From a bacterium (lineage in GTDB: Bacteria > Patescibacteriota > Minisyncoccia > Phycocordibacterales > UBA5272), in assembly GCA_043751115.1 (NCBI GenBank), contig JAYVAE010000040.1:1-56805 (forward strand): 56,805 bases of DNA, given 5' to 3'. Shown here piece by piece: positions 16,623 to 33,736 of the stretch. The notes under the pieces were generated by a model. That model worked only from the letters and a program-made list of their open reading frames with translations. It was not told where the DNA came from and did no database searches. A program made the translations under genes and the position numbers. Every line of letters begins with the position of its first letter. Position 1 is the stretch's first letter.

Positions 16623-17411
16623 ATGAATTACAAACCTAAAAAAAGCTTGGGTCAAAATTTCTTAACCTCTCCTCCAGCGCGCGCCGCAATTGTTGAAGCA
16701 GGGCATTTAAGTGACAAAGATATTGTTCTTGAAATAGGGCCTGGAAAAGGATTTCTCACGGAAGGATTGCTCGCGACCGGCGCCACCGTTCAGGCAGTAG
16801 AAAAAGATAGCGAGCTCGTGCCCTTTTTATGCGAAAGATTTGCAAAAGAAATTTCTTCTCAAAAACTTTCTGTCACGGAAGGAGACGTGCTAACCTTAGA
16901 GCCACCTTACACTTCGTATAAACTTATTGCCAATATTCCGTACTATATTACCGGAGCAATACTCTCTCGCTTTCTCTCTCACGAGAGGAAGCCGACACTT
17001 ATGGTTGTGCTCGTTCAAAAAGAGCTTGCCGAAAGAGTGACGACAAGAGACGGCAAAGAGTCTATTTTATCTCTCGCGGTGAAAGTGTATGGTACCCCTC
17101 GTATCGCACACCGTGTCTTAGCAGGGAGCTTTTTCCCGAAACCAAAAGTGGATAGCGCCGTGCTCGCCATAGACAATGTCAGTGGTTCAAATTTCCTGGA
17201 CGAGAGTCATGAGCTCGCTTTTTTTACACTCATAAAGCTTGGCTTTTCTCACAAGAGAAAGATACTTATTTCAAATCTTAAAGAGTTATATGATGAGGAT
17301 GCACTTCGAGTACTCTTTAAAGAACTCTCACTCTCCGAAAAAGAAAGGGCTGAGAATGTTACACTAGATAAATGGTTATATATCTCCTCGGCGCTTTCAC
17401 GCTCATCGTAA
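16623..17411 (+). CDS. rsmA: 16S rRNA (adenine1518/1519-N6)-dimethyltransferase
   Basis: KKSLGQNFL N-terminus, SAM motif LEIGPGKGFLT, and NIPYYIT. Confidence 0.9.
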   Translation: MNYKPKKSLGQNFLTSPPARAAIVEAGHLSDKDIVLEIGPGKGFLTEGLLATGATVQAVEKDSELVPFLCERFAKEISSQKLSVTEGDVLTLEPPYTSYKLIANIPYYITGAILSRFLSHERKPTLMVVLVQKELAERVTTRDGKESILSLAVKVYGTPRIAHRVLAGSFFPKPKVDSAVLAIDNVSGSNFLDESHELAFFTLIKLGFSHKRKILISNLKELYDEDALRVLFKELSLSEKERAENVTLDKWLYISSALSRSS

Positions 17412-18748
17412 CAACTCTCACTCTAGCTTCTCTCTTTCACTTTTCTTATAAAAAGAAACATCCGTACGCCTTGTGGTTTCTTGGTGGATTTCTCTATAAC
17501 TGTTTCACCGTATCTTTCTTTTATGTTTTCCTACCTGTGCCCTGGATAGAAAATATTACGCTTCAGTACGCAGGCATAACCCTGTTTATACTGCTCGGTG
17601 CCATTCTCGCGGGTGCTTCTTTTCTTATTATCCCTCTTCTTTTGCGGAAGACTTATCTTATACCTCTTGCTCTTGTTCCACTTTCTATTTCTTTTGCCTT
17701 TTTATTACAAGATATAGTACGCTCGACTTTTATATCACTACTTCTATATGGTAAGGGCGCCCCATCCGGTATACATTTTATCTTGGGGTCTATCGGCGAA
17801 TCACTCGCATTTACACCACTCGTCATTTTTTCGTATTGGGGTAGTGTTTACTTTTTAACAGCCCTTCTTTCGCTCCTCATTTTCCTTGGCTTTACTTTGA
17901 TCAAAAAAATCTTACCTCTTAGAGTCATCGCCGTGTACTTAGTCTTACTTGTTATTATTTTTTTCTCACTTCTTGTGAGAAGAGAGTCTACCCTTGCTTC
18001 CCTTACTCCCCATGATCCTCTTAAAATAGGGATAGTTACTACCGACTCGCCGAATCCAACTATAGAAAATCCTTTACCTGAATATAAAGCTCGCACCGAA
18101 AAAATAAACACTCTCCTTAGGGAAAAAATAACCTCACCGTTTGATATAGTAATACTGCCTGAGTCTACATCCTACCTTGATACTCGTGATGTTTTAAATA
18201 TGGATGAACGCTTCCCGATAAAGAGCTTTCTCGACAGTACTACTATTCCCAAAAAAGAAGACTATCATGTAAGTACCATCTTTCGTGATGAAGAGGTCAA
18301 TGTGACCGAAACGCGCAGAAAGGATGGTCTCATGGTCTTTAGCGAGTACAATCCCTATCTCTATGATTTACTATTATATTTTTTCAAGGACGGTACAGAG
18401 AGAACAAGAACTCTTACTCGTTCTACTTCTGACTATCACACCTTTACGGCAGGAGATCTCCGCTTTGGCGTCCTCATCTGTTCTGAGGGCACATCACTTA
18501 TGCCACTGCATAACTTCGAAAAGAAAAACCCTGATTTTTATGTTTTACAGTCAAATCTCGCTATTATGCAGGGAAGATCATTTGGTTTCATGCATCTCTA
18601 TGCTTATACTAGACTCCTAGCAACAACCTCAGGTAAGCCTGTTCTTGGTGTGAGCAACTCTGCTCCCAGTTATGGCTTCGACGGCAAGGGGCGTCCACTC
18701 TACAGCATAAATAAATCTTATTCTTTTTATGAAATAATACTGCCTTAG
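17372..18748 (+). CDS. lnt: Apolipoprotein N-acyltransferase-like protein (polytopic N-terminus + CN-hydrolase domain)
   Basis: About 6 TM segments followed by a nitrilase-type triad context: IVILPES, RKDGLMVFSEYNPY, FGVLICSEG. Overlaps the rsmA 3' end by 40 nt. Confidence 0.7.
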   Translation: MVIYLLGAFTLIVTTLTLASLFHFSYKKKHPYALWFLGGFLYNCFTVSFFYVFLPVPWIENITLQYAGITLFILLGAILAGASFLIIPLLLRKTYLIPLALVPLSISFAFLLQDIVRSTFISLLLYGKGAPSGIHFILGSIGESLAFTPLVIFSYWGSVYFLTALLSLLIFLGFTLIKKILPLRVIAVYLVLLVIIFFSLLVRRESTLASLTPHDPLKIGIVTTDSPNPTIENPLPEYKARTEKINTLLREKITSPFDIVILPESTSYLDTRDVLNMDERFPIKSFLDSTTIPKKEDYHVSTIFRDEEVNVTETRRKDGLMVFSEYNPYLYDLLLYFFKDGTERTRTLTRSTSDYHTFTAGDLRFGVLICSEGTSLMPLHNFEKKNPDFYVLQSNLAIMQGRSFGFMHLYAYTRLLATTSGKPVLGVSNSAPSYGFDGKGRPLYSINKSYSFYEIILP

Positions 18749-18816: not shown

Positions 18817-19749
18817 ATGAATCAGTCTCTCCAGAAAAGAATCGGCGTGTCACTTCTTATTCTTGCGTCCATCGCTGTACTTAGCATCGCCTCATTTGGG
18901 ACAAAAAAAGAAAAAACAAATACACAGGGAGTACGAGGTGATGTCGCAGCACAAATACTTTCCCTAGAAAAAGACCTTCCGCCACGAGAAGACACTGACG
19001 GTGACGGAACACTCAATTGGCAGGAAATTATACGAGGAACAGACCCAAACAAAAAGGATGACAAACTTGTAGCAGGGGAAGTAAGCAGTAATGACCTTAA
19101 ACGATTAAGTGATGAAAACAATATGACCGTAGCGCTCGCTAAGAATAATGCCACTCTTTCCGCTTATCTCAACACCTTAGAAAACAAGGGAGATGTTGAC
19201 CAAAAAGGACTCGCAGAAGACAGTCTCATAGCAACAGCTGCCACCTTCTCTTTTAAAAGATATGAGGAGAAAGATCTTAATAATAAAATTGATGCAACAC
19301 AAATAAAGAGAAAAGACTACGGGAATACTCTTGCAAAAATGACAGCTGAAAAAGTCGCTGTCTACTCTCAAATAAATGATCTTCTTGCTCTTAAGGATAT
19401 TGTCAACGAAATTTCTAACCCACCATCTGTCTTCTTGCTCAAAGAAAAAGTAAAGACTCTTACTCTCTTTAGGGCTGAGCTACTCTCAATGCCAGTACCA
19501 AAAGATGCTGTTACCTATCATCTTACTTATGTCAACGCTCTTAGCACTTATGTAGAAGTACTTGAGGGTTTTTTAAATCAAAAAGGGGACCCGCTCAAGG
19601 CTGGTCTTTTCCTCAGGGGGTACAAAACTATACTTGAAAATCTTTTTATAACCTTCGACGACATTAAACTTTATTTCTCTCAAAACAATCTTACTTTCGG
19701 AGCGAAAGAGCCTGGCTATGTCTTTACTGTAGGACTCTTTAAAAAATAA
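18817..19749 (+). CDS. Membrane-anchored protein with DxDxDG Ca-binding-like motif; first gene of the T4SS-like module
   Basis: N-terminal TM segment (IGVSLLILASIAVLSIASF) followed by EDTDGDGTLNWQEIIRGTDPNKKDD. No family assignable. Confidence 0.6.
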   Translation: MNQSLQKRIGVSLLILASIAVLSIASFGTKKEKTNTQGVRGDVAAQILSLEKDLPPREDTDGDGTLNWQEIIRGTDPNKKDDKLVAGEVSSNDLKRLSDENNMTVALAKNNATLSAYLNTLENKGDVDQKGLAEDSLIATAATFSFKRYEEKDLNNKIDATQIKRKDYGNTLAKMTAEKVAVYSQINDLLALKDIVNEISNPPSVFLLKEKVKTLTLFRAELLSMPVPKDAVTYHLTYVNALSTYVEVLEGFLNQKGDPLKAGLFLRGYKTILENLFITFDDIKLYFSQNNLTFGAKEPGYVFTVGLFKK

Positions 19750-19753
19750 CGCT

Positions 19754-21616
19754 ATGAAAAAACTTTCGACTTGCTTCGCCATACTCACTCTCTCACTACA
19801 CCCATTTTCTCTTTTTGCTGCTGCAAGTGGCTCTGTTGTTCTCGACCCATCAAACCTTGCCCAAAATATTACTCAGGTAGCCAAGTCTGCCGCAAGCAAT
19901 GCCTATCAAGCCATTAGCTCTGGCGCAGAATTAGCGATAAAAACAAAAGAGTTCAGCCTCGACATTGTTGCAACAAAAATTGCTCAAGACATGATAAATA
20001 GAGCAGCTGGCGATACAGTGAATTGGATAAACTCCGGCTTTCAGGGCGGGGGGCCAGGCTTTATTGTGAATCCTGAGGCTTATTTTAAAAATGTTGCCAA
20101 TCAAGAGATACGTATACAGCTCGACTCTATCAATAAATCGACGATTGATCCTTTTAAAAATGCAGTGAGTGTCGCAATAGTAAAAAATGTAAGAGATGGC
20201 AGGTCATCCATTGCCGCACAAATGCAATACACTCTCACCGACACCATCAGGCAAGAAACCTGTTCGACAGCTAATCTTCAAAGCATTGCTGAGAGTCAGG
20301 TAAGCCAAGGATTGAGTGCGGGCACCTCAAATACAAATCTAAGTCAAAGCGAACAAATAGAAAAGAGAAAGGGCGAGCTCTATCAAGAGTTCTGTACTCC
20401 CGGATCAAAAACAAATGTCCAGTCTCAGCTTAAATTACAAACTTGTTACAAGTCCGGTGCTTGTGGTAGCTGGGGCTCACTCGCCTCTTCATTTAACCCA
20501 GTAAATACAGAATACGGCAGAATCGCTATGGCAAAAAGTAATCTTGCCATAAAGACAACAAAACAGGCAGAAACAGCAAAGGCTGAGGTAGGGGACGGCA
20601 TTATTCCAGAAAAGGTTTGCCAAGTCAGACTACAAGTAGATGATAACGATAATCCTTATCCACCAGGAGAAGGGCCGTGCGTCGAATGGAATACAAAGAC
20701 ACCGGTGTCCTCTATAAAAAATGAGCTCTATAAGTCGCAAACGGGGGAATACTCTAAACTTAAAAATGCGGACGAACTCGGAGAGATTATTGGTAACGCC
20801 CTCCTCAATCAAGCAACTAAATCTCTCTATGGCGGACTCAATACTGCAATACAGAAAGCTGGTGTAGGATTACTTAATGTCACTTTTGACAATCTTCTAG
20901 CAAATAAATCAAAGAGTTTACCGAGCGACATCATAAAGAAAGATAACTCAGATGACACTTCGCTTCCACCCTTAGAGCAAGTAAACTTGGCGCGCGCAAC
21001 GACCATCTGTACAAATATGCCGCCCTCAAAAAAAGACTCCCTAATAAGTCTCTGCGATCATCTTTCTTCTAACAGGGCGTCCCAAATAATAGACACTGAA
21101 TTTAGAACAGCAATATTAAACTTTAGCTCTTCTGTTGCTAGACTAGATTCTTGCGCACGGGACGCAAAGGAGGTGAATCCTCCTTCTAGCAATATTTCTA
21201 CTTGGGAGGACAATAATAACACGAGAAAAGACTCTCTTGCTGGATTTGATGTTGGAGGACTCAACAAGCGAACTTCAGTTTATCCTTCCTCACTGCTGAC
21301 ACTTTCAACGTACATCGTAAACATAGCAAGTAGTACTGATGATGGTAAGTTGAGTATTATTCTAAACAATTACGGTCAAAATATTGAGAATGAGGATAAG
21401 TTTATACGCTTCTCCCAAGAAAAAATATCAGGTGTTGATTTCTTTAGTTTCAAAAGTCAGGTAGGGAATGATCAAAACAGACTGACTGGTCAAGTAAATA
21501 GCTGTACATCTTATGTCAATCAATGTCGCACCTACGCCAGTGAGGACAAGGACTGCAATGGCAGACCAAATCGCGGTGGTGATGGGAATGAGGGTAACCA
21601 TGGTGGAGGGGCTTAG
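19754..21616 (+). CDS. Secreted Cys-containing protein, N-terminus TrbJ/VirB5-like
   Basis: Signal peptide ending FAAAS, then SVVLDPSNLAQNITQVAKSA, which resembles the V-x-D-x-x-N-L-x-Q-N motif at the mature N-terminus of TrbJ/VirB5 proteins. It sits immediately upstream of the TrbL/VirB6-like gene, as in Trb operons. Gly-rich C-terminus. Confidence 0.45.
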   Translation: MKKLSTCFAILTLSLHPFSLFAAASGSVVLDPSNLAQNITQVAKSAASNAYQAISSGAELAIKTKEFSLDIVATKIAQDMINRAAGDTVNWINSGFQGGGPGFIVNPEAYFKNVANQEIRIQLDSINKSTIDPFKNAVSVAIVKNVRDGRSSIAAQMQYTLTDTIRQETCSTANLQSIAESQVSQGLSAGTSNTNLSQSEQIEKRKGELYQEFCTPGSKTNVQSQLKLQTCYKSGACGSWGSLASSFNPVNTEYGRIAMAKSNLAIKTTKQAETAKAEVGDGIIPEKVCQVRLQVDDNDNPYPPGEGPCVEWNTKTPVSSIKNELYKSQTGEYSKLKNADELGEIIGNALLNQATKSLYGGLNTAIQKAGVGLLNVTFDNLLANKSKSLPSDIIKKDNSDDTSLPPLEQVNLARATTICTNMPPSKKDSLISLCDHLSSNRASQIIDTEFRTAILNFSSSVARLDSCARDAKEVNPPSSNISTWEDNNNTRKDSLAGFDVGGLNKRTSVYPSSLLTLSTYIVNIASSTDDGKLSIILNNYGQNIENEDKFIRFSQEKISGVDFFSFKSQVGNDQNRLTGQVNSCTSYVNQCRTYASEDKDCNGRPNRGGDGNEGNHGGGA

Positions 21617-21793
21617 AAAATTTCTACTCATTTCTTTTTCTCGTTATATACTGACTCCAAGTAGTCTTTTCTCATTTGAATTCTGCCACTATGATAAGTA
21701 GCGTAAGGCAACTCTATTTTGAGCAGTAATAGTGCATTAACTCTATGCACTCTTACACAAGAGAGGGCTTACTCCTTGTGTTATCATACTACT

Positions 21794-24748
21794 ATGACTT
21801 CTTTCGTGAAAAAAGGACTATTTCTTTCATCTGTTTTTCTCCTTTCTTTTGGTAGCTTCTCTCTTTTTGCTCAAAGTGACCCGGAGAACATACCTTGTAA
21901 ACAAGAAAATAGTGGATTCTGCGTCGTTGCTGGGAAAAAAGGAATATGCTCGAATTCTGTGTGTAAGTTATCCTCTGAATCTCAGACTACATCAGGCGCA
22001 ACGTATCCCGCAGTAGGGGCACTCGCCTCAACTGTTTTTAATGGCTTCAAAAATACTTTAAATGGCTTTAAAGGTCCTTTAGAGGTGGCTGCCGCAACTA
22101 CTACAAATCCAGATGCGGCAAAAGCAAATCAAAAGGCTCTCGAAGCTTTTAATACTAACTACGATAAACTCTCTGGTATTTTCACGCAAATGGAGTATGC
22201 CTACTCGAGTGAGATTTCTATGCAAGAGGCAAAGGGTGCTGAAGCAAAGGACGCGCACTTTCTGGCAGCAACCAAGGCTAATCAAAAATGGGCAGAATTA
22301 TATAATAGAGACATAACTCCCATTCTTTCTTCCTCCATGTTCCCTCCCCAGACAAGGGACTCTTTGCGAAGTTTTTATTTAGTTATTCCTGGAAGAATGA
22401 ACGAGTTTGTTAGGTCGGCAAAGGATATACAGAATGGAACGCCTATTAATGATGCAAGTGTGCAGCCGACGGACAATACGGCAGGCGACGCAGCAAGGAA
22501 TCAAGTTGCGGCTGGAAATAAGACGCTTGATGAGGATGGTGCGGGGTGTAGTCCTTTTAGTTTTAATTTAGGTAAGTGCATGAACGCTATCTTTAGCTGG
22601 ATAGCGAGAGTGGTATTCGTCAACATTGCTTTCTTTGTTTTTTATTTAAGTGGTGTCTTTCTTCACTTCTCTATACATTTCGGACTTGTTTCTATGAAGA
22701 GTCTCATCACCGAGGACGTTTACACATTATGGCTCTTTACAAGGAATCTTGCTCTCGCTGGATGTCTTTTTGCTACGCTGTACTTTGTTGGCATGTATTT
22801 GGTGGGACTTGGTCAAAAAATAGAGCGTCAGGCCGTCGCCGTGATACTGTTTGCTATCTTTTCTGGATTCTCTTTTACTTTATCCACGTATTTAATAGAC
22901 GGATCAAACCTCATTACCACGTCGCTTTACAGTAGCATCGACCAAAAATGGGCTGAGCCCTCGCGTTTTGCTTTACCGGTGATTTCTGGAAAATTTAGCG
23001 AGCAATTAGGTTGGCAAGGATTTTCTTCTGCTATTGGCGCTGTTAACCCCGATAGTATTTTAGGGAAAATCTCTCAAGGAGGGAATCCTTTCTCTGGTGT
23101 AGCGCTCAACTTACTCGTTGCGGCCACACTACTCTATGACGCTTATGTGCTTTTTATGATGGGAATACTTTTTCTCATCAGAAATATTGGTCTTTTTGCT
23201 GCAGTTATATTTTCTCCACTTCTTCTCATTGATAAGACTATACCTAAACTTTCAGAGTGGGCGGACAAGTATAGAAGATTTTTCTTTGGACTACTCGCAC
23301 TTGGTCCTGTTTTTATGTTTCTCATGTATATAGCTCTTAAGGTGACTGAGGTAATACTCACCGGTACGCGGAAACTCAGTGGACAAATATCCGGAGCTAA
23401 TGAAGGTTTAATCCTTTTCCAAGTTTTTACAGTAACAGCTATTTTCTATTTTACCTATAAAACGTGTAAAACGTTGAGCGGAGCGCTCGGAGATGCGGCG
23501 CTCGGAGCAGTTTCAGGTCTCGCCAGTAAAGCAATGATAGCAACGCCGCTCGGTGCTGCAGGACGCGTCGCTGCCTTTGCTGGTCAAAATACAATTGGGA
23601 GGCTTGCAAGGCGCTCAGTGAGAGAAGGAGGCACCTTGTCAAATATGAAAGAAAAAGGAGGTTTTTTTGGAAGGACAGCATTTAGCGCTGCGAATTATGC
23701 GGGAAATACTGCCACCTATGACTTCAATAATACGAAAGCATTTGCGGGAGCAAAAGCAAACTTAGAAAAAAGGGCTGGCGTGAGTATCGCTGTGAGCAAA
23801 GGGTTAGGTTATGTGGATACCAGAGAAAAAATTAGAAAAGAAACAGTAGAGAAGCTGGGCGAAATGAGGACAGAAGAGGGTCGGCAAATAGTACTTGATA
23901 AAGGTGCTCGAAGATTTGATCGTGCTACATCGCTACTTCCTAGCACAAACCCCAACTCAGAAAGAGGGGGAAGATTGAACGACTTTAAAGCAGATCTTTC
24001 TCAAGGTACTACCAAAAAAGCAAAATCAACTATAAAAGACGAAGTTGGGGCAGTCAATTTAGATGATTTTACGAATAAAAGCGATGACTCACAGAAATCT
24101 CTCATAAAAAAACTTGGTGATATATACAAAAAATCTGAAGGTAGTAACGACGAGATCAAAAAGTATGCAAAAGAAACTTTTGAAAATAAGGTGCTTGTCA
24201 TGCTTTCCGATGCGGTCAAATCGAGTAAGGATTCCACGCTCGATCCGCTTTCTCCTAATTTTGAAATTAACGCGAAGGCAGAATTTACAAAAATTGCAAG
24301 GTTATTTGATGATTCAGGCAAACTTCCAGCGGGTGTAACTGTTGCAAGTAATACTGAATTGCTTGAAAAATTCAAACTACAAATGGGAATGTACGCGACA
24401 CAAAGGAAGAAAGAGCTTGGAAGATCTACTGAACAAAATGCTCCAGCAAACACAGCTCCAAGAAGTGTGGCAGTACCAACCAGTTCCGTCTTTCCTCAAA
24501 CTGTTGGATCTATTCCAAACTGGGAGTCTTTATTAGGTGCAAGTGATTTATCGGGCGGACTTGGAGGGACAGCAATCCCTGCCACTACATCCGCAACTAA
24601 CTCCCCCACAAAACCGTCCGGTGGTAGTGGACAAGCAGCAAGTAATACACAATCTGCTACGCAACCAGTAAGTACTGCAAACAGCACCCCATCGCCGAAA
24701 CAACCAGAGCCCAATAAAGAGTCTGAAAAGGAGGAACAAACGGCATAA
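21794..24748 (+). CDS. Giant TrbL/VirB6-like polytopic membrane protein
   Basis: ATG at 21794 (MTSFVKKGLFLSS..., signal-like). A secreted N-terminal domain of about 260 aa is followed by at least 6 hydrophobic segments and then a hydrophilic tail of about 400 aa ending in S/T/P/Q-rich low complexity. The TTG at 21719 in the ORF track is rejected. Confidence 0.55.
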   Translation: MTSFVKKGLFLSSVFLLSFGSFSLFAQSDPENIPCKQENSGFCVVAGKKGICSNSVCKLSSESQTTSGATYPAVGALASTVFNGFKNTLNGFKGPLEVAAATTTNPDAAKANQKALEAFNTNYDKLSGIFTQMEYAYSSEISMQEAKGAEAKDAHFLAATKANQKWAELYNRDITPILSSSMFPPQTRDSLRSFYLVIPGRMNEFVRSAKDIQNGTPINDASVQPTDNTAGDAARNQVAAGNKTLDEDGAGCSPFSFNLGKCMNAIFSWIARVVFVNIAFFVFYLSGVFLHFSIHFGLVSMKSLITEDVYTLWLFTRNLALAGCLFATLYFVGMYLVGLGQKIERQAVAVILFAIFSGFSFTLSTYLIDGSNLITTSLYSSIDQKWAEPSRFALPVISGKFSEQLGWQGFSSAIGAVNPDSILGKISQGGNPFSGVALNLLVAATLLYDAYVLFMMGILFLIRNIGLFAAVIFSPLLLIDKTIPKLSEWADKYRRFFFGLLALGPVFMFLMYIALKVTEVILTGTRKLSGQISGANEGLILFQVFTVTAIFYFTYKTCKTLSGALGDAALGAVSGLASKAMIATPLGAAGRVAAFAGQNTIGRLARRSVREGGTLSNMKEKGGFFGRTAFSAANYAGNTATYDFNNTKAFAGAKANLEKRAGVSIAVSKGLGYVDTREKIRKETVEKLGEMRTEEGRQIVLDKGARRFDRATSLLPSTNPNSERGGRLNDFKADLSQGTTKKAKSTIKDEVGAVNLDDFTNKSDDSQKSLIKKLGDIYKKSEGSNDEIKKYAKETFENKVLVMLSDAVKSSKDSTLDPLSPNFEINAKAEFTKIARLFDDSGKLPAGVTVASNTELLEKFKLQMGMYATQRKKELGRSTEQNAPANTAPRSVAVPTSSVFPQTVGSIPNWESLLGASDLSGGLGGTAIPATTSATNSPTKPSGGSGQAASNTQSATQPVSTANSTPSPKQPEPNKESEKEEQTA

Positions 24749-24756
24749 TATTCACT

Positions 24757-25446
24757 ATGGACAAAACTCTTATCTCTGAAGCCTTTGCAAAAGTTCCCCA
24801 CTCTTTACAAACATACATAAAAAGTAAGGATTTTGAAAGAGACATATTACAACTCATAAATGACGCAGACATTCCGGTCACGGCATTCTTGCCACTTAAA
24901 AATTATACTCTTCTAGTGCTTCTTAATCTCTCTGGCGACGACTCTTTGAAGCACAGCCTTGAATTGTCGCTACAGCTTGACGCTTCAAAAATGTCTGCTA
25001 TCTTAGATCACATTGACGAACTGACCTTACATGTACTCAGCCAATTAGTAGAGGCCTCTGTCCCCGAAACAATAAAAAATATAAAACTTCCGGCAGATGC
25101 TGCAAGCGGAGGAGACCTTCGCGTGAGTATGCTTAAGACGAAAGATACTGGGGCGAGCGTAGCACCAGCCAAGATAATTAATACTTCAAGAAATATTCTG
25201 ATGGATCAATTGTCTCTCATCGGACAAATACCGAAAGATGAAGATGTACTCCTTCGTCTTTCTAAAATTAAGGATCAGTTAAGGCGCGGGCAAGATGCAA
25301 GAGAAAAGCTTGATAAAGAAATAAAAGAAAGAGTGCTAACGGAGAAGATAAAGAGTGCTGAACAAAGTAAAGCTCATGTCACTAGGAAAGTCTATGACGT
25401 AGACCCATATAGAGAACATGCAGGCGCAGGGGACAATGAACTATGA
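24757..25446 (+). CDS. Hypothetical soluble protein of the T4SS-like module
   Basis: 229-aa ORF starting 8 nt after the previous stop. No TM segment and no family recognised. Confidence 0.6.
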   Translation: MDKTLISEAFAKVPHSLQTYIKSKDFERDILQLINDADIPVTAFLPLKNYTLLVLLNLSGDDSLKHSLELSLQLDASKMSAILDHIDELTLHVLSQLVEASVPETIKNIKLPADAASGGDLRVSMLKTKDTGASVAPAKIINTSRNILMDQLSLIGQIPKDEDVLLRLSKIKDQLRRGQDAREKLDKEIKERVLTEKIKSAEQSKAHVTRKVYDVDPYREHAGAGDNEL

Positions 25447-25468
25447 TATAGTTATCTGTAATAACACC

Positions 25469-25900
25469 ATGCAATTTAGAGTACCTCAATTCATTGACGT
25501 AGAAGATAAAATAATAGGATCGCTGACGCTGAAGCAATTTTTCTATATTCTTGGAGCTGCTGGAACCGCATTTCTTTTCTTCAAATTCATTCCAATAAAA
25601 ATTGTTGCATTCCTCTTAGCGGCACCAGTGTCAGGATTTTTCCTCGCTCTTGCTTTTGTAAAAATTAATGAAAGACCTTTCATGGATTTTGCTGAGAGTT
25701 TCTTTTCCTACCTTTTAAGGGGTAAAGTTTATGTGTGGCAGCAACCGAAACAGAATATGGCAGATGAAGACTTGGCACCGCTCATACTTGAGACAACAAA
25801 AGACAGTGTCGTTGAAAAAGCAAACAGAAATAAGCTCCATGAAATAGCGTTCGGCCTTGATGTACAAAAAGATAACTCACAGGAAGAGTCGTCGAAATAG
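25469..25900 (+). CDS. PrgI family / VirB3-like small membrane protein
   Basis: MQFRVPQFIDVEDKIIGSLTLKQFFYILGAAG followed by two TM segments matches the PrgI-family pattern. It is positioned directly upstream of VirB4. Confidence 0.6.
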   Translation: MQFRVPQFIDVEDKIIGSLTLKQFFYILGAAGTAFLFFKFIPIKIVAFLLAAPVSGFFLALAFVKINERPFMDFAESFFSYLLRGKVYVWQQPKQNMADEDLAPLILETTKDSVVEKANRNKLHEIAFGLDVQKDNSQEESSK

Positions 25901-25915
25901 GGTATACTCCTTACT

Positions 25916-26536
25916 ATGGCCATAGGAACACCTACTCAAGACTTCATACCTATAGAAAGTATTAGGGACGGTGTTATCGTCCTTAAAAATGGAGAGTACC
26001 GCAGTATTATCATGACAAGCTCGGTTAATCTCTCTCTTAAAAGTAGTGACGAGCAAACTGCTATTTACTTACAATTTCAAAATCTCTTAAATACTCTTGA
26101 TTTTCAAATACAAATCTTCATTCAATCGCGGCGTCTTGATATTCGGCCATATCTTTCTATTTTGGAAAAAAGACAGGGTGAAGTAAAGGAAGATCTCCTT
26201 AAGGTACAAATTTCTGAATATATAGAATTTATAAAAAACTTTACTGACGAATCAAATATTATGACAAAACATTTCTTTGTGGTCGTCCCGTATCTTCCAC
26301 TCGGTGGTGCCTCTTCTCCAAAAAATGCTCTCTTTGGTAGTAAAGGAGCAGGAGACATCACTGATTTTGAGAGATCAAGAACGCAATTAAGGGAGAGGGT
26401 CTCTGTTGTTGTCTCTGGACTTTCACGTTTTGGTATAAGGTCGACACTCCTTAACACGGAAGAAACGGTAGAACTTTTTTACAAAGAGTTCAATCCCGGG
26501 GAAAGTGACCACACTAATCTTTCCGCAATTAAATAA
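25916..26536 (+). CDS. VirB4 N-terminal-domain-like protein (separate ORF)
   Basis: TQDFIPIESIRDGVIVLKNGEYRSIIMTSSVNLSLKSSDEQTAIYLQFQNLLNTLDFQIQIFIQSRR resembles the N-terminal domain of Gram-positive VirB4/TraE-type ATPases. A TATACT box lies 7 nt before the ATG. Confidence 0.45.
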   Translation: MAIGTPTQDFIPIESIRDGVIVLKNGEYRSIIMTSSVNLSLKSSDEQTAIYLQFQNLLNTLDFQIQIFIQSRRLDIRPYLSILEKRQGEVKEDLLKVQISEYIEFIKNFTDESNIMTKHFFVVVPYLPLGGASSPKNALFGSKGAGDITDFERSRTQLRERVSVVVSGLSRFGIRSTLLNTEETVELFYKEFNPGESDHTNLSAIK

Positions 26537-26549
26537 TAAAGTAAAAAAT

Positions 26550-28361
26550 ATGGGACTATTTGATTTTTTAGGAGGTAAGAAAGAAGGGGAGGATAAGGGT
26601 GTGCCCCTTCTTCCTGATCAAATATATAAAGCGGCAGAGTTAAAGCTCAAAGATCTCCTTGCGCCATCAGCGCTTGGAGTACAGTCAAAGCTTTTAAATT
26701 TAGGCGATGTGGTTGTTCGATCTTATTTTATAGTTTCATACCCGGCCTACCTTTCTGATAGCTGGCTCAGCCCCATCATCAACCTCGATAAAGTTTTTGA
26801 CGTGTCCATACACATAACTCCCCTTGAAACAGGCAAGATAATGAAAGATTTTCAAAGAAAGGTAGCTGAGGTGGAGAGTCAAATAATACAAAGAGAGCAG
26901 GAGGGTATGGTGCGTGATCCAAGTCTTGATGTTGCGTATGAGGATTTGGAAGGGCTACGTGACGAACTGATACAAGCTCAAGAAAAAATGTTTGATGTTG
27001 GACTTTATCTTAGCCTTTATGGCAAAGACGAAGAAGAGGTGAGAAAAGCTGAAAGTGAAGTGAAATCAATACTCGACAGTAAGCTTATTTATATGAAGCC
27101 AGCACTTTTCCAGCAAGAAGAAGGATTTAAGACTGTCATACCAACGCTAACTGATGAAATTAAAATTGTTCATAAGTTTAATACTTCTCCACTCTCTTCT
27201 TTCTTTCCCTTTGTTTCCTCAGACCTTTCTTCCAATAGTGGCATACTTTACGGCTTAAATAGACACAATGGAAGTCTGGTGCTTTTTGATCGATTTTCAC
27301 TTGAAAATTATAATTCTATCATCTTTGCAAAGTCTGGTTCTGGCAAAAGTTATACCACCAAACTCGAAATACTCCGCTCGCTGATGTTTGATACAGAAGT
27401 TATTATTATTGATCCAGAAAGAGAGTATGAATATCTGGCTGAGTCAGTAGGGGGGAGATACTTTAATATAAGTTTGGTGAGTGAACATCATATAAACCCT
27501 TTTGAATTACCAAATCCGACAGAAGATGAATCTCCATCTGAAGTGCTACGCGCCAATATCGTCAACCTCGTGGGACTATTCCGCGTGATGCTTGGCGGGC
27601 TTACTCCTGAAGAAGACGCCCTCGTTGATAGGGCTATTGCTGAGACCTACGCCCTTAAAGATATTAACGGTGACACTGACTTTACTAATCTCGAACCACC
27701 TCTTTTGTCTGATTTCGAGACCGTACTCGCTGGTATGGAGGGGACAGAAAAGGTTTTAGCAAAGCTCTCAAAATATACCAAAGGCTCTTGGTCTGGATTT
27801 CTCAATCAAGCGTCCAATGTCGATATTGAAAAGAAGCTTGTCTGCTTTTCAATACGAGACATGGAAGACGAGCTCAAGCCGGTTGCCATGTACATGATAA
27901 CTCACTATATTTGGAATGCTATTAGAAAAAATATTAGAAAAAGAATACTCGTTGTCGACGAAGCGTGGATCATGATGAAAAATGATGATACAGCCTCTTT
28001 CCTCTTTGGACTGGCAAAACGCGGAAGAAAATACTATCTTGGGCTTACGACAATAACGCAAGACGTGGGAGATTTTCTCCGCTCTCCTTATGGCCTTCCT
28101 ATTATTACCAACTCTTCTATACAACTATTACTCAAGCAGTCGCCTTCTTCCATAGACCAAGTACAAAAAACTTTCAATTTAACTGATGAAGAAAAATTCA
28201 TGTTACTTGAGTCAGGAGTGGGGGAGGGAATATTCTTTGCTGGACTCAAACACGTCGCAATAAAGGTTGTCGCGTCCTATACAGAAGACCAGATAATCAC
28301 CAGCGACCCTTCACAAATACTAGCGATTAAGAAAATGAAAAAAGAAAATGCAAGCGCTTAA
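26550..28361 (+). CDS. VirB4/TrbE/PrgJ-type T4SS ATPase (C-terminal motor part)
   Basis: Walker A FAKSGSGKSYTTK, Walker B RILVVDEAWIMM, GLTTITQD, and a KQS motif near the C-terminus. The ATG at 26550 (MGLFDFLGG) is preferred over the alternative (non-ATG) start at 26505 used by the ORF track. Confidence 0.8.
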   Translation: MGLFDFLGGKKEGEDKGVPLLPDQIYKAAELKLKDLLAPSALGVQSKLLNLGDVVVRSYFIVSYPAYLSDSWLSPIINLDKVFDVSIHITPLETGKIMKDFQRKVAEVESQIIQREQEGMVRDPSLDVAYEDLEGLRDELIQAQEKMFDVGLYLSLYGKDEEEVRKAESEVKSILDSKLIYMKPALFQQEEGFKTVIPTLTDEIKIVHKFNTSPLSSFFPFVSSDLSSNSGILYGLNRHNGSLVLFDRFSLENYNSIIFAKSGSGKSYTTKLEILRSLMFDTEVIIIDPEREYEYLAESVGGRYFNISLVSEHHINPFELPNPTEDESPSEVLRANIVNLVGLFRVMLGGLTPEEDALVDRAIAETYALKDINGDTDFTNLEPPLLSDFETVLAGMEGTEKVLAKLSKYTKGSWSGFLNQASNVDIEKKLVCFSIRDMEDELKPVAMYMITHYIWNAIRKNIRKRILVVDEAWIMMKNDDTASFLFGLAKRGRKYYLGLTTITQDVGDFLRSPYGLPIITNSSIQLLLKQSPSSIDQVQKTFNLTDEEKFMLLESGVGEGIFFAGLKHVAIKVVASYTEDQIITSDPSQILAIKKMKKENASA

Positions 28362-29346
28362 TCAACAAAAACTCTTTATAAAAAAAATTTTTTTCTTTTC
28401 ATTATTTTTAATTACTTTTCCTTATGCTTCAGCGCAAGTACGGCTCGATGGGCAAATTGATTTCACCCCAGCAAATCCGAAACCATACGAAACTATTAAG
28501 GTTACTCTAAAAAGTTATTCTTTTGATGTGAACTCTGCAAGTATTTCATGGTATGTTAACAAAGTCCTTGTAGAGAAGGGTGTGGGGGCAAAAAGCTTTT
28601 CTATTGATCTTGGGCCTGCAAATAAAACCTATTTTATTGGCGTAGATGTGGTGAGCGCGGAGGGTCAGTCCTTCCAGGACTCAATTGATATTACACCGCA
28701 CTTTACACCATTACTCACAGAAGGTGCTGAGGGGTATGTTCCGCCGTTTTACGAAGGGCGCGCGCTGTATGGTGAAAGCGCAAAGGTGCGCGTGGTTGCT
28801 TTTCCTATACTTACCGAAGGAGGGGTGTCAATAGGAAAGAAAAAACTCGTTTATCGCTGGTCAGTCAATACTATTCCCTTTCCTGATGCTGGTGGATATG
28901 GAAAAAACGTTTTTATTGTTCGCCAAGATGAGCTCGAGGAGCAAAACAATGTTGATGTGACAGTAACTTCACTTTCAAAAAATAGCTCTCTTGTGGAGAG
29001 GGTATCACTTCGCCCCTATGATATTGAGCCGCTCTTTTACGAATACGATTCCCTTTACGGTGTTAACTTACATAAAGCACATGAAGGTATTCTTTCCATT
29101 TCGAGGCCAACAAAAATTTATTATGCCCCCTACAACTTTGCTTACAGTAAAAGCACCAGCTTTTTTAATTGGTCTTTAAATGGATTACCTATTACCGCGG
29201 ATACAGATTTTTTAGTTAATCTCATTCCTAAAGAAAATAGTATAGGAGTAAGCACGCTTGGTATAACAGCACAGCATACGACAAAGTTGCTTCAGGCGCT
29301 TGATTCTAAGCTCAGTATCAGTTTTGATACAACAAAAAATGAATAA
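28348..29346 (+). CDS. Hypothetical secreted beta-rich protein of the T4SS-like module
   Basis: Signal peptide ...FPYASAQV. Overlaps the VirB4 stop by 14 nt. No family recognised. Confidence 0.6.
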   Translation: MQALNQQKLFIKKIFFFSLFLITFPYASAQVRLDGQIDFTPANPKPYETIKVTLKSYSFDVNSASISWYVNKVLVEKGVGAKSFSIDLGPANKTYFIGVDVVSAEGQSFQDSIDITPHFTPLLTEGAEGYVPPFYEGRALYGESAKVRVVAFPILTEGGVSIGKKKLVYRWSVNTIPFPDAGGYGKNVFIVRQDELEEQNNVDVTVTSLSKNSSLVERVSLRPYDIEPLFYEYDSLYGVNLHKAHEGILSISRPTKIYYAPYNFAYSKSTSFFNWSLNGLPITADTDFLVNLIPKENSIGVSTLGITAQHTTKLLQALDSKLSISFDTTKNE

Positions 29347-30169
29347 ACCTACAGACATTTACTTAACAGAAGAGGTTGGGCAATTTGCTAAAAAGAATCC
29401 AAATTTTAACATAACAGATTTGCAAAATGAGGCTGTCTTTTTTATCATTGGCGTGCTTTTTGTTTTTGCGGCTTACACACTTGCTAAGGCAGGGCTCACC
29501 AAAATGTGGTCAGCAAGTATCGGCTCTCACGCAGAAAGTAATGAAAAAATTAAAGCTTTTGGAGTGTCACTCGTTGTTATAGTAGTAACAATGAGTTTAC
29601 TTTCTTATCTTGGAGTTTTTTCTTCTGACTATTCTTTAAAGCCACTTTCATCGTCTCCCTCATCGCAACCGTCTCTCGGAACGGTTCCAACGCCGGCCCA
29701 CGCTCCCACTGGTTTCAGTGATCAAAATCTCGTAGCCATGCTTGAAACGGAGGCAAAAAATAGAGAGTTTTTAGAAAGTTTTCAAGGTATACAAATAAAC
29801 AAAAAGGCTTGTACTGCTATTGGTCAGACTAATTGTACCTCCGTCGGAGGTATGGGTGCAGGCACACTCGCCATGCTTGAGTCCTTAAAAAGAGTGTGTA
29901 CTTGTAACTTTGTTATAACTGGCGGCACGGAGTGGTGGACACATTCCATAGCGACTCGTCACCGCCCGGGTCAATCAACAGCGGTTGATCTTTCATTTGG
30001 AAATAAAAACTCTGGCGTGAGTAAATTTATTTACGAGTCACCTCTCTTTAAAGGGTCTGATAAGGTGTGGCCCAGATGTTATACCGCTTTTATCTGGTCA
30101 GGATTTTACTTTTGTGATGAAAAAGATAACGGCTCTCAGCCGAGACATTGGCATATACAGCCACTCTAG
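29339..30169 (+). CDS. Two-TM hairpin + S/P linker + putative LAS/M15-like Zn peptidase domain
   Basis: ATG at 29339. Two TM segments (AVFFIIGVLFVFAAYTLA and FGVSLVVIVVTMSLLSYLGVF), a linker SSSPSSQPSLGTVPTPAHAPT, and C-terminal motifs H-x8-D (HRPGQSTAVD) and HWH. Confidence 0.4.
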   Translation: MNKPTDIYLTEEVGQFAKKNPNFNITDLQNEAVFFIIGVLFVFAAYTLAKAGLTKMWSASIGSHAESNEKIKAFGVSLVVIVVTMSLLSYLGVFSSDYSLKPLSSSPSSQPSLGTVPTPAHAPTGFSDQNLVAMLETEAKNREFLESFQGIQINKKACTAIGQTNCTSVGGMGAGTLAMLESLKRVCTCNFVITGGTEWWTHSIATRHRPGQSTAVDLSFGNKNSGVSKFIYESPLFKGSDKVWPRCYTAFIWSGFYFCDEKDNGSQPRHWHIQPL

Positions 30170-30196
30170 TTTTTCTTTTGCTATACTCATAGTTAT

Positions 30197-31489
30197 ATGA
30201 AGAAATTCTTTTATTTCCTTGTTATTCTTCTCGTACTCTCACTTCTCTTTTTTCTCTACTGGTATTTCTCATTTCGAGGTGTTGTGCCAAAAATTCCGTT
30301 TCTTCCGGATAACCCTTTTGGGCTTTTCACAAATGACGTGCAGGGTGGTGGAGGTAATAATGTTAAGGGTGGTAGTGGTGGTAGAAATGATGATGGAGAC
30401 AACAACGGAACAAGCACTATCTCCTACAATGATGAAAAGCTTTTTGAGCTTGTTTCAAAAGAACCAACCGCTGGTTACTCTTTTTCAGACTTCGTAACCG
30501 TTACGTATGGATCCTCTACCGAATCAGGTAAAAAAACTTTTGCTACAACTACTGCCATTTTATATGTCGACAGAGGAACTGGTCACATTTATAAAAAGTT
30601 TATTTTTAGGGGAGGGAAGCCTCAAAAGCTTACCAATACAACTGTTCCTGGAGTATACGACGCTTACTTCTTTGCAAATAATACAAAAGTTCTTATGCGT
30701 TATCTCCGTGAATCCGACAACACAGTTATTTCTTTATACGCTACGCTTCCACCGCTCTCAAGCTCGCTCACACTACCATTACGAGAAACAGTACGTCTTC
30801 CAGAAAATATGGTGAGTGTTGCTGTCTCTCCGAGAACAAGTGATATATATTATCTCGTCAAAACGTCTTCTGGTAGTACCCTTTACCGTATTGGGCCAAA
30901 AGGGGATGAGAAGGTTCGCGATTATGATCTCTCTGAACTATTTCTCACTTTTAACAAAGACGAGCTCATCATTTCGCAAAAGCCTTCCGCTTTTGAAAAA
31001 ACATATTTCTTTAGCGAAAATGAGCTCAGTCTTTATGGGGGAAGAACGGGTCAAAGGGCACTCTTCTCTCAGGTAAATAAAGGTGTTTTCCTTTATTCAG
31101 TGTGGACTGAGTCTGGACTTCAACTTCTCTCGAGTAATCTTTCAGGTCAAAAACCTCATGCTTATGATACTCAAACACTGTCCGATAAATGTGTTTCTTC
31201 TCTTGTCGGTAGTTATTTCTTTTGTTTTGTTCCTAATATTTTACCACTCATTCCTTTTGGGCTTCCTGACGATTGGTATAAGGGGAGAGTCTCTTTCAAT
31301 GACTCTCTCATTGTTCTGGACACCGTAAAGTATGAGGAAGGGGTGCTCTCAAGACTAGAAACTGACATTGGTAGTGAATTCGATACCTTTAAACCACTCA
31401 TGAGTAGTCGTGACACTTATCTCGCTTTTTCAAATAAAATAAATAATGAGCTTTGGGTTGCCCAGCTACAAAAAATAATAGCAAGATAA
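30197..31489 (+). CDS. Hypothetical membrane-anchored protein with Gly-rich spacer
   Basis: N-terminal TM segment FFYFLVILLVLSLLFFLYWYF, then GGGGNNVKGGSGGRNDDGDNNG, then a beta-rich domain of about 340 aa. No family recognised. Confidence 0.6.
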   Translation: MKKFFYFLVILLVLSLLFFLYWYFSFRGVVPKIPFLPDNPFGLFTNDVQGGGGNNVKGGSGGRNDDGDNNGTSTISYNDEKLFELVSKEPTAGYSFSDFVTVTYGSSTESGKKTFATTTAILYVDRGTGHIYKKFIFRGGKPQKLTNTTVPGVYDAYFFANNTKVLMRYLRESDNTVISLYATLPPLSSSLTLPLRETVRLPENMVSVAVSPRTSDIYYLVKTSSGSTLYRIGPKGDEKVRDYDLSELFLTFNKDELIISQKPSAFEKTYFFSENELSLYGGRTGQRALFSQVNKGVFLYSVWTESGLQLLSSNLSGQKPHAYDTQTLSDKCVSSLVGSYFFCFVPNILPLIPFGLPDDWYKGRVSFNDSLIVLDTVKYEEGVLSRLETDIGSEFDTFKPLMSSRDTYLAFSNKINNELWVAQLQKIIAR

Positions 31490-31492
31490 TAT

Positions 31493-32482
31493 ATGGACCC
31501 AACATATTTAATAAATCAAGACAGTCCTCAAGTTTTCGGTATTAGTGGTACAGCAAAATTATCAGAGCTGGCGAACACTGGTTGGACATTTGGTGTTTCT
31601 CTTCTTTTCTTAGCTCTTTTTGTTGCTCTCGTGTGGTCATCTATAGGCATGATACACGCCTCATCAACGGGAAACTTTCATAGTCATTCAAATTATAAGG
31701 AGCTTCTCAGAAAAGTTGTTTACTCAATAATTGCAGTTCTCTTTGTTTCAGTTTTCATATTTTTTGTCATGAAGGGGTTTGAATTTCTTGATTTCGATAA
31801 TAAATCAACTCAAAATACTGGTGCAACGGTCTTAACTCCATCAACTACACCAAACCCAAGTGTGGGGAAAGGAAGACATGGAACAGCAACTCCTACCTGC
31901 ATCCATCCACAGCTGTATAAAGATACTCTTAGAGAAATGGGTGACGGCTTATGTGGTGGAACATTTTGTAAAGGTTTGTGTAATTTTAAGGCTGATATAA
32001 AACAAATCGCAGTAAGTGAAGCGCGCTCCGCTGGTGTTGATCCAAGCATTATCTTAGCTCTCATTTGCCGTGAGTCATCTGGCAATCCTGAGGCAAAAGG
32101 AGTTCACGCTAACAATGGTAATCCTGACTGCGGATTAATGCAAATAAATAGTCAAAGCTGTACAGCAGATATAATGGACCCGACAAACAACGTTCGGGCT
32201 GGTATACAGCTTTATAAGGCAAAACTTGCATCGGTATCTTCATACTCCTATGCAGGGACTAATAAGCCAACACTCGCATTCGCAGCATACAATTGTTGCG
32301 CAAATGGTGATAATCCTAACAGTAAGAGTGCGGATTGTAATCTTGGTACTGGATGGTCTATGGACTTACCTAAATGGGCTTGCCCAATAAACCCTGGAAC
32401 AGGATCCTTTAATATGTGTGCGGTTAAAAACTATACCTGTGACGTGACTGCCTGTGCCAGAGAATATGCCAAAGGTCTATAG
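31493..32482 (+). CDS. Two-TM hairpin + soluble lytic transglycosylase (SLT, VirB1-like) domain
   Basis: Two TM segments (FGVSLLFLALFVALVWSSIGMI and VVYSIIAVLFVSVFIFFVM). SLT motifs ICRESSGNP (catalytic E-S), GLMQIN and AAYNCCANG. Many Cys in the C-terminal half. Confidence 0.75.
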   Translation: MDPTYLINQDSPQVFGISGTAKLSELANTGWTFGVSLLFLALFVALVWSSIGMIHASSTGNFHSHSNYKELLRKVVYSIIAVLFVSVFIFFVMKGFEFLDFDNKSTQNTGATVLTPSTTPNPSVGKGRHGTATPTCIHPQLYKDTLREMGDGLCGGTFCKGLCNFKADIKQIAVSEARSAGVDPSIILALICRESSGNPEAKGVHANNGNPDCGLMQINSQSCTADIMDPTNNVRAGIQLYKAKLASVSSYSYAGTNKPTLAFAAYNCCANGDNPNSKSADCNLGTGWSMDLPKWACPINPGTGSFNMCAVKNYTCDVTACAREYAKGL

Positions 32483-33601: not shown

Positions 33602-33736
33602 TTAAACTGATAATTTCTTTCTTCCGGAAGACCTTCTTCTTTGTATAATGTTTCTTCCAGACTTTGTCGCCATTCTCACAAGGAAACCGTGAGTTGTACC
33701 TCTCTTTTTTCTTTTTGGTTTATATGTTACGGACAT
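33602..33736 (-). CDS. rpmH: 50S ribosomal protein L34
   Basis: Not in the ORF track (44 aa). The minus strand translates to MSVTYKPKRKKRGTTHGFLVRMATKSGRNIIQRRRSSGRKKLSV, a clear L34 signature. Confidence 0.92.
   Translation of the reverse strand: MSVTYKPKRKKRGTTHGFLVRMATKSGRNIIQRRRSSGRKKLSV

Follow-up and report, generated by a model that had tools for sequence, protein, structure and literature searches.

An eleven-gene block beside the replication origin of a Patescibacteria genome as a probable chromosomal type IV secretion system of the Paceibacteria class

Background

What kind of machine is encoded by the eleven-gene block at positions 18817 to 32482 of contig JAYVAE010000040.1 (assembly GCA_043751115.1, Patescibacteriota), and does it serve conjugation? 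The contig was analysed over its whole length of 56,805 nucleotides, which is called the window here. The first-pass annotation, made from the letters and open reading frames (ORFs) alone, described the block as a minimal, non-conjugative module resembling a type IV secretion system (T4SS) in a reduced epibiont, and as the most system-like unexplained block of the window. The core parts were confirmed in the present analysis, and no outer-membrane core, relaxase or coupling protein was seen in the window. The block is very probably a vertically inherited chromosomal T4SS of Paceibacteria-class Patescibacteria (candidate phyla radiation, CPR) derived from the monoderm MPF-FATA conjugation machinery, that is, a class-specific version of the "Patescibacteria clade" T4SS. 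It is real, conserved and already known, and it is no new kind of system; the word "unexplained" has to be withdrawn, as the T4SS of Patescibacteria had been published (PMC12102498, PMC10633639).

This T4SS was described by Quinonero-Coronel et al. (2025, Microb Genom, PMC12102498). VirB4 was present in 2,417 of 3,035 Patescibacteria genomes, and most of these proteins fell into a single clade within MPF-FATA. Among the associated components TrsD was the commonest; PrgI/VirB3, VirB6 and VirB2-like pilins of family PF18895 were also found, and VirB1-like hydrolases were associated with virB4 in Paceibacteria. The neighbourhood in Paceibacteria and Microgenomatia was rich in dnaA, dnaN, rnpA, ksgA and rpmH.

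In Southlakia epibionticum the cluster SEML1_0006-0019 was essential in co-culture by transposon sequencing, and its T4SS has no recognisable coupling or relaxase proteins (Wang et al. 2023, Cell, PMC10633639). The supplement of that study lists, under consecutive locus tags, VirB6 (0013), an NTF2-like protein (0012), a T4SS-like protein (0011), PrgI (0010), SEML1_0009, VirB4 (0008), a protein of DD-peptidase fold (0007) and a lysozyme-like protein (0006). A TrsD homologue adjoins VirB4 in this organism as well (PMC12102498). Reviews regard the function of the Patescibacteria T4SS as wholly unknown and consider the delivery of effectors or the uptake of nucleic acid.

Results and Discussion

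The conserved engine

Three adjacent genes of the block encode the engine of the system. Genes and their families are named below by the start position where no protein name is available.

25469 to 25900, plus strand: PrgI/VirB3-like two-helix membrane protein, 143 aa (Pfam PrgI, PF12666)
25916 to 26536, plus strand: TrsD-like protein, 206 aa (partial NCBIfam matches to VirB4 and TrsD)
26550 to 28361, plus strand: VirB4 ATPase of the monoderm (MPF-FATA) type, 603 aa (NCBIfam conju_CD1110)

The call of a PrgI/VirB3-like protein with two membrane segments was borne out by the Pfam match (3.7e-8, 34.2 bits against a cut-off of 27) and by two hydrophobic segments. VirB4 matched the conju_CD1110 model with 5.5e-111 and 372 bits (cut-off 325) over profile positions 182-733 of 752, and Pfam P-loop_TraG with 3.6e-26. 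Reading of the sequence shows both Walker motifs intact, A as GSGKS and B as VVDEAW. The identity to Paceibacteria (69-87%) and the best NCBIfam model, CD1110, suggest a placement of this VirB4 in the Patescibacteria clade.

The TrsD-like protein matched the NCBIfam models VirB4_plasma at positions 104-233 (2.9e-11) and the CD1110 family at positions 1-118 (1.9e-8). Since the two proteins cover complementary positions of the profile (1-118 and 182-733), together they correspond to one full-length VirB4. The match to the TrsD/TraD model NF041427 (6.5e-8, 32.6 bits) was below the curated cut-off of 200 bits, so that the protein is a homologue of TrsD/TraD, yet no member at the threshold of NCBI. 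Its precomputed Pfam family is PF26593 (TraC-like), and a phmmer search of the protein against PDB gave chance-level matches only.

The relatives also carry two genes here: a separate TrsD-like ORF of about 212 aa precedes a VirB4 of about 605 aa in 79/79 of them. A frameshifted VirB4 was considered and ruled out by the different frames, the 13-nt gap and these separate ORFs. The apparent split is an ancestral, conserved pair of TrsD and VirB4. In the earlier statement that VirB4 is encoded as two ORFs, the VirB4 call is retained, as the protein scores above the CD1110 cut-off, while the first ORF is to be read as a TrsD-like gene in its own right. The PrgI and TrsD-like genes adjoin virB4, as in the Patescibacteria-clade T4SS, and the order PrgI-TrsD-VirB4 was found in 75/75 and 79/79 relatives.

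Gene order in relatives and inheritance of the block

The VirB4 protein was 69-87% identical to that of 80 loci in species-representative genomes. The informative titles among these loci were Nomurabacteria, Paceibacterota and Yonathbacteria; many others read "uncultured Candidatus Saccharibacteria", which was taken as a generic label. The organism thus probably belongs to class Paceibacteria. Each window protein was searched by tblastn, and a locus was counted as eligible for a gene when its contig was long enough to reach the expected position of that gene. The TrsD-like gene was detected in 79/79 eligible loci, PrgI in 75/75, the 28348 family in 73/73, the VirB6-like gene in 59/61 and the 30197 family in 58/59; among the flanking genes, yidC was detected in 53/55, dnaA in 48/50 and ksgA in 40/50. 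Fast-evolving families were recovered in 46-78 loci by profile hidden Markov models (HMMs), with 18817 in 46, 19754 in 48 and 24757 in 68. The gene order was constant across the related loci, the tblastn hits being always on the expected side of virB4, and all eleven families keep their order in the 80 Paceibacteria-type loci. Such constancy goes well beyond chance. Synteny of the orphan proteins with virB4 had been fixed beforehand as the point on which the module could fail; the orphans accompany virB4 in the relatives, and the module stands. Their identity was 22-38% where that of VirB4 was 70-80%. The orphan families are conserved yet quickly diverging, a pattern expected for envelope-exposed parts.

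The upstream flank of the block contains uvrD, an EamA-type transporter (minus strand) and ksgA. The downstream flank contains yidC, rnpA and rpmH (33602-33736), all on the minus strand, followed by dnaA and dnaN, and this gene set is the classical origin neighbourhood. Because the order ksgA...virB4...yidC(-)-rnpA(-)-dnaA is kept across related genomes, the block is regarded as vertically inherited. A mobile island was ruled out by a GC content like that of the flank, together with the conserved housekeeping flanks.

A different origin would be that of a transfer module of an integrative and conjugative element (ICE) or a decayed plasmid near the origin, with conjugative DNA transfer now or once. 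The homology of VirB4, the TrsD-like protein, PrgI and the SLT hydrolase to Gram-positive conjugation proteins agrees with this origin, as does a tyrosine recombinase gene at 4296-5282 (minus strand; Phage_integrase with a SAM-like N-domain). The recombinase, however, lies 13 kb from the T4SS behind and among housekeeping genes, and may be XerC/D-like rather than an element integrase. As the first reading had stated, VirD4, relaxase and VirB7/9/10 domains were absent by Pfam from the scanned window ORFs of at least 100 aa, and no relaxase, oriT or VirD4/TcpA-type coupling protein of a conjugative T4SS was found in the 56.8-kb window. Nor did these scans reveal an integrase adjoining the block. 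The GC content of the block (0.39-0.43) resembles that of the upstream flank (0.40-0.44). The flanking genes ksgA, yidC and dnaA recur, at the counts given above, down to 69% VirB4 identity, which is a vertical pattern, and relaxases are present in only 103 of about 3,000 Patescibacteria genomes (PMC12102498). An ICE or plasmid origin is accordingly considered scarcely credible.

A wall hydrolase and a putative second one on pilin-like hairpins

Two genes of the block encode fusions of a hydrophobic hairpin with a recognised or putative wall hydrolase domain.

29339 to 30169, plus strand: fusion of a hairpin and a Cys-rich LAS/M15-like domain with a Pro/Ser/Thr linker between them, 276 aa
31493 to 32482, plus strand: fusion of a hairpin and a C-terminal SLT lytic transglycosylase domain (VirB1-like), 329 aa, 14 Cys

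The VirB1-like transglycosylase was correctly recognised at first sight: SLT (PF01464) matched with 3.1e-11 and 43.3 bits against a cut-off of 21.3. The domain was detected in 19/21 members of the 31493 family, and the catalytic residues E194 and S195 were invariant or nearly so (n=21). For the second enzyme, earlier called a putative Zn peptidase, the evidence is divided. The residues H202, H208, D217, H270 and H272 (H...H...D...HxH) were invariant in the family (n=30) along with conserved cysteines, and the positional counterpart in a distant relative (locus L078) matched Peptidase_M15_4 with 2.8e-18 and 66.7 bits; the C-domain of the window protein itself had no Pfam, NCBIfam or PDB sequence match. 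The motif is that of a putative LAS/M15-like zinc peptidase.

Comparison of the two family alignments by hhalign over their N-terminal 165 columns (E 7.3e-39) shows that the N-termini of the two hydrolases are homologues, and the first 100 residues or so of both form two hydrophobic helices, a hairpin, by hydropathy. T4SS_pilin (PF18895) matched residues 35-89 of the 31493 protein with 0.0032 and 17.9 bits, below the cut-off of 26.6, and the 29339 protein gave no match. The same model matched 8/30 members of the 29339 family (best 1.7e-8) and 5/10 more distant counterparts at 27.5-34.8 bits, above the cut-off. An HMM of the hairpin domain detected exactly two ORFs in the window, the two hydrolases, and 88 ORFs in 67 related loci, all of 235-614 aa except three contig-end fragments. 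A free pilin of about 100 aa was found in none of these 88 ORFs. The statement that no stand-alone VirB2 is visible is literally true, but it passed over two putative VirB2-like pilin domains that are fused to the hydrolases.

The C-terminal partner among the 88 hairpin ORFs was LAS-like in 33, SLT in 21 and other in 34. Ten of the other proteins were scanned with Pfam; four carried Peptidase_M15_4, SLT_2, NlpC/P60 and YkuD, and the remaining six showed the pilin domain only, one of them with a weak sub-threshold match. Seen from the enzymes, the hairpin stands N-terminal of 21/21 SLT and 33/34 LAS-like domains in these loci. The fusion of pilin and hydrolase in this Paceibacteria group is not mentioned in the available text of PMC12102498, and it is possibly the one new detail of the block.

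On a conservative view, the hairpin would do no more than anchor the wall hydrolases in the membrane and dock them at the translocon. A bolder proposal is that the hairpins polymerise or are exported, and that the wall-degrading enzymes are thereby presented to the host envelope and breach it. This proposal draws on the fact that in the 67 related loci the pilin-like domain occurs only on larger proteins, of which 54/88 match the LAS-like or SLT C-domain models, on the enzyme domains in four of the ten other proteins, and on the position of the SLT and LAS-like domains behind the hairpin. T4SS pilin-domain proteins were also among the highest-expressed unknowns in cultivated Paceibacteria (PMC10936435). 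Against it, a two-helix hairpin may be a mere membrane anchor, and the window proteins score below the PF18895 cut-off. The VirB1-like hydrolases of Gram-positive T4SSs are likewise membrane-anchored and act on the own wall of the donor. It is therefore quite improbable that the hairpins polymerise or leave the cell. The same low standing is given to its general form, in which the VirB2-like pilin of this Paceibacteria lineage would not be a free subunit and the T4SS would build or export an enzyme-studded structure that breaches the host wall. If it were true, with hairpins that assemble like VirB2, it would be an epibiotic attack mechanism undescribed for any T4SS.

The VirB6-like and VirB5-like candidates

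Two large proteins of the block had been assigned to VirB6 and VirB5 by their appearance.

19754 to 21616, plus strand: secreted Cys-rich protein (13 Cys), 620 aa, directly upstream of the VirB6-like gene
21794 to 24748, plus strand: "extended VirB6"-like polytopic protein, 984 aa (hydropathy, AlphaFold2 (AF2), Foldseek)

The 21794 protein has a signal or anchor, an N-terminal helical domain (about residues 70-215), a membrane core (about 255-575) and a long low-complexity C-terminal tail. In the AF2 model the core reached a pLDDT of about 90, and the N-terminal helical domain was also confident. The matches of top probability in Foldseek were chains of the VirB5-VirB6 stalk of R388 (7o3v_G and 8rtd_L/I), the identity of the VirB6 chain being judged from its length. 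The 7o3v_G match had a probability of 0.89, a template-modelling (TM) score by target of 0.40 and an E value of 0.43; for the stalk chains overall the E values were 0.43-1.7, which is not significant, and the TM scores by target 0.38-0.44. The window protein had no Pfam match. TrbL was the only recurring Pfam family, in 2/35 and 2/50 members of the 21794 family (4/85, best 6.3e-5), which comprises 2086 representative relatives at E<=0.001. A profile search of PDB with the family gave chance-level matches only. When the topology and the place of the gene are added, a VirB6-like protein is the likeliest identity, though a weakly supported one. The earlier TrbL/VirB6 call fits in topology and position, but gained neither a Pfam match nor a significant structural match.

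The TrbJ/VirB5 call for the 19754 protein fared worse. The motif VVLDPSNLAQN on which it was based does stand after the signal peptide. The sole HMM signal was DUF4141 at 18.6 bits against a cut-off of 30, confined to a 19-residue N-terminal motif and seen in 1/24 members. The AF2 model, built from 21 sequences, had a mean pLDDT of 61 and was confident only in helices at about 410-600. No T4SS protein was found by Foldseek of this model against PDB (best E 0.57), a result to which the poorly modelled N-terminal half lends some doubt, and the profile search of PDB with the family gave no match above chance. The alignment of the family revealed the conserved motifs NWxNxGFxGxP, GGWDxW and C...TPG. 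With just the N-terminal motif and the position before the VirB6-like gene in its favour, and no VirB5 fold from AF2 and Foldseek, the VirB5 assignment is unsupported.

Conserved families without annotation

The remaining four genes of the block encode proteins that the first reading could liken to nothing.

18817 to 19749, plus strand: anchored protein, 310 aa, with an N-terminal anchor (hydrophobic residues 9-27) and a DxDxDG (TSP3-like) motif
24757 to 25446, plus strand: protein without a hydrophobic segment, presumably cytoplasmic, 229 aa, between the VirB6-like gene and PrgI
28348 to 29346, plus strand: protein with an N-terminal signal or anchor, 332 aa, its start overlapping the virB4 stop by 14 nt
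30197 to 31489, plus strand: protein with an N-terminal anchor, 430 aa, with a Gly-rich linker, a large extracytoplasmic domain and a conserved Cys pair

That judgement was upheld, and with the 19754 protein five families stay unannotated after the HMM and PDB searches. The 18817 protein, which has an extracytoplasmic domain, gave a weak TSP3_bac match (17.6 bits) and is regarded as a lineage-specific envelope component. The 24757 family has an invariant C-terminal Y-x-x-D-P-Y-x-E and a mean column identity of 51% among the closer relatives. Profile searches of PDB with 18817 and 24757 gave chance-level matches only. The most conserved orphan, 28348, consists of three repeats of about 100 aa, each with a W-x-x-N-G-like motif, which may be beta-sandwich modules. 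It had no Pfam, NCBIfam or PDB sequence match, and a homologue search with a concatenated alignment of 28348 and 19754 returned 17 proteins, none of the 28348 family. For 30197 the sole PDB match was TolB (E 0.84), which was discounted as chance. NCBIfam gave nothing for 8 of the first ten proteins of the module.

Boundaries of the block

The eleven consecutive ORFs of the plus strand between 18817 and 32482 are tightly packed, with spacings of 4, 177, 8, 22, 15, 13, -14, -8, 27 and 3 nt at the likeliest starts. The ORF list gives alternative starts for four of them (21719/21794-24748, 25418/25469-25900, 26505/26550-28361 and 29300/29339-30169). Three public contigs carry a VirB4 of 100% identity, and one of them equals the window at 100% identity across 21.8 kb. 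The independent gene calls on these contigs yield the same eleven products, of 310, 620, 984, 229, 143, 206, 603, 332, 276, 430 and 329 aa, in accordance with the run of eleven ORFs with small gaps and overlaps that was first described. The starts first chosen at 21794, 25469 and 26550 are right, because the public calls give matching product sizes.

The 3' end of the run is 46 nt short of the convergent yidC. The plus-strand run opens further upstream, with ksgA (16623-17411) and a further membrane ORF:

17372 to 18748, plus strand: polytopic membrane protein, possible upstream member, 458 aa, with about 6-7 hydrophobic segments by hydropathy

This ORF overlaps ksgA by 40 nt and stops 68 nt before the 18817 gene. 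Its protein matched no Pfam family, and it was detected by tblastn in 14/50 eligible related loci at a constant position. It may be a twelfth member of the module or an unrelated membrane protein, and its membership is uncertain. A scan for promoter-like sites gave 45 against 34.8 +/- 5.7 for shuffles, which is near chance and uninformative, and 14 terminator-like sites were found against a shuffle expectation of 14.2.

Comparison with known systems

The closest known system is the Patescibacteria-clade T4SS (PMC12102498). Common to both are the monoderm-type VirB4, the adjacent separate TrsD-like gene, PrgI/VirB3 and a candidate VirB6-like protein, and further the putative PF18895 domains, the VirB1-like hydrolases, the lack of a nearby relaxase or coupling protein and the position by dnaA, dnaN, rnpA, rpmH and ksgA. 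There is no essential difference, and the window locus is very probably one instance of this system. Neighbouring families without homology are left uncoloured in that report; here they are shown to be conserved.

With S. epibionticum ML1 the block shares the core order VirB6-like ... PrgI - TrsD-like - VirB4 - DD-peptidase - lysozyme-like. The DD-peptidase counterpart there has a Hedgehog/LAS fold (PMC10633639), and the low locus-tag numbers of its cluster compare with the position of the window block at the origin. In S. epibionticum the PF18895 pilins are free and form an array of six genes, the hydrolases are much larger (643 and 1113 aa), and a protein of NTF2-like (VirB8) fold is present; the window has no free pilin, no detected NTF2-like protein and two small pilin-fused hydrolases. 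The accessory families 18817, 19754, 28348 and 30197 also differ from those of S. epibionticum, and essentiality was tested in S. epibionticum only.

The Gram-positive MPF-FATA systems (trs of pGO1/pSK41, prg of pCF10 and the CD1110 family of Clostridioides conjugative transposons) share the VirB3-like, VirB4 and VirB6-like proteins, the membrane-anchored VirB1-like hydrolase and the lack of a VirB7/9/10 core. The order TrsC-TrsD-TrsE of pGO1 equals PrgI-TrsD-VirB4 of the window (in part from PMC12102498). These systems are carried by plasmids or ICEs that also bring a relaxase, a coupling protein and an oriT, and they use surface adhesins and have no known pilin. The window system, in contrast, is chromosomal, syntenic across species and provided with putative VirB2-like domains, without DNA-processing parts in the window.

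ComB of Helicobacter pylori is a chromosomal T4SS without relaxase that imports, and has been taken as precedent for an uptake role in Patescibacteria (PMC11665869). It is built on the diderm plan, with VirB2-4, VirB6-10 and an outer-membrane core, and its sequence kinship with the window is limited to membership in the VirB4 family. ComB-type systems work without a relaxase, and by this analogy the block could be a machine for the uptake of DNA or other nucleic acid that feeds a cell unable to make nucleotides. The T4SS has been named a candidate nucleotide route, since in S. epibionticum comEC is dispensable and the T4SS essential (PMC11665869). According to a 2026 preprint on an organism that takes up host RNA, tubular structures stand at a CPR-host interface, and its authors suggest that these may be T4SS pili. 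The window itself is silent on the direction of transport and the substrate, and no ComEC or ComEA partner is adjacent. Uptake is therefore held to be rather unlikely as the function of the block; it is a functional sub-hypothesis that is compatible with the anatomy of the Paceibacteria T4SS proposed here and calls for no different structure.

Proposed working of the system

Present in the block are the PrgI/VirB3-TrsD-VirB4 engine with intact ATPase motifs, the SLT hydrolase and the putative LAS/M15-like hydrolase on pilin-like hairpins, and the large polytopic protein. The engine genes are always accompanied by those of five further proteins, four secreted or anchored and one presumably cytoplasmic. 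In such a machine PrgI would dock hexamers of VirB4 onto the VirB6-like channel, and the hexamers would power assembly and transport, the 984-aa polytopic protein being the putative channel subunit. The hydrolases would open the cell wall, either that of the cell itself or that of the host. The proteins 28348 (with its three repeats), 30197, 18817 and 19754 may form the wall-spanning and surface part that replaces VirB8 and adhesins. The machine would serve epibiotic host interaction, such as protein export, contact or the uptake of host material, and not conjugation, and the place beside oriC would favour a high and constitutive dosage.

Several points weigh against this account of a non-conjugative Patescibacteria T4SS. 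For this organism the system is known from its genes alone, and the probable placement in the Patescibacteria clade was derived from identity and an NCBIfam model. The VirB6 assignment draws on weak signals (a window protein without a Pfam match and a Foldseek E value of 0.43), and five proteins (18817, 19754, 24757, 28348 and 30197) have no recognisable fold or family. The search for a relaxase or coupling protein spans the 57-kb window, and either could lie elsewhere in the genome; in many Patescibacteria VirD4-like genes are far from virB4 (PMC12102498). Even for the best-studied relative, neither what is transported nor in which direction has been established (PMC11665869).

Other features of the window

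The remaining housekeeping genes of the window include tpiA, pgk, RNase HII, ruvB/C, PBP1, TyrRS, PolA and TsaE, besides which a PilB-type ATPase and some surface proteins are encoded. Searches of the window for tRNA genes and for Rfam families were both empty. The rpmH gene (44 aa, minus strand, from 33602) overlaps the start of the longest dnaA ORF at 33735; the dnaA start in the public gene calls corresponds to window position 33807 and gives a protein of 444 aa.

Four further features were noted:

35220 to 36267: insertion of 1,048 bp between dnaA and dnaN with perfect 21-bp terminal inverted repeats (35224-35244 and 36238-36258)
44367 to 46067, minus strand: PilB/GspE-type ATPase (T2SSE 1.9e-121, with an MshEN domain), 12 kb from the T4SS
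46600 to 49300: region with a GC content of 0.49-0.51 against about 0.40 elsewhere and many spurious overlapping ORFs on both strands
49382 to 52087: secreted protein of 901 aa with about 8 tandem Cys-rich repeats (C..NG.Y....C.K.C......FPN.CP), a DUF11 domain and a C-terminal membrane anchor

The insertion in the origin region contains an ORF (35480-36232) for a 250-aa protein without a Pfam match. It is missing in two strains of 99.6-99.9% identity, with a 7-bp overlap at the junction that is possibly a target duplication, and it looks like a small insertion sequence element. The ATPase at 44367-46067 indicates a type IV pilus or type II secretion locus. Two proteins of 211 and 393 aa, secreted or membrane-bound and rich in Ala, Pro and Gly, are encoded in the GC-rich region and have no Pfam family; the region is not rRNA, because the Rfam scan was empty, and may be foreign DNA. 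The 901-aa protein is plausibly a surface adhesin.

Conclusion

The T4SS of Patescibacteria is the first T4SS reported to be essential for the growth of its carrier (PMC12857230, PMC11665869), and the window shows a Paceibacteria version that is clean and complete, its gene boundaries fixed exactly. Eleven families, five of them unannotated, travel with virB4 across the sampled genomes, and the pilin-like domains are not free here but tethered to wall hydrolases. The universally conserved proteins 28348 and 30197 are candidates for the wall-spanning part that replaces VirB8. The conserved families could guide gene targeting in the few cultivated Paceibacteria.

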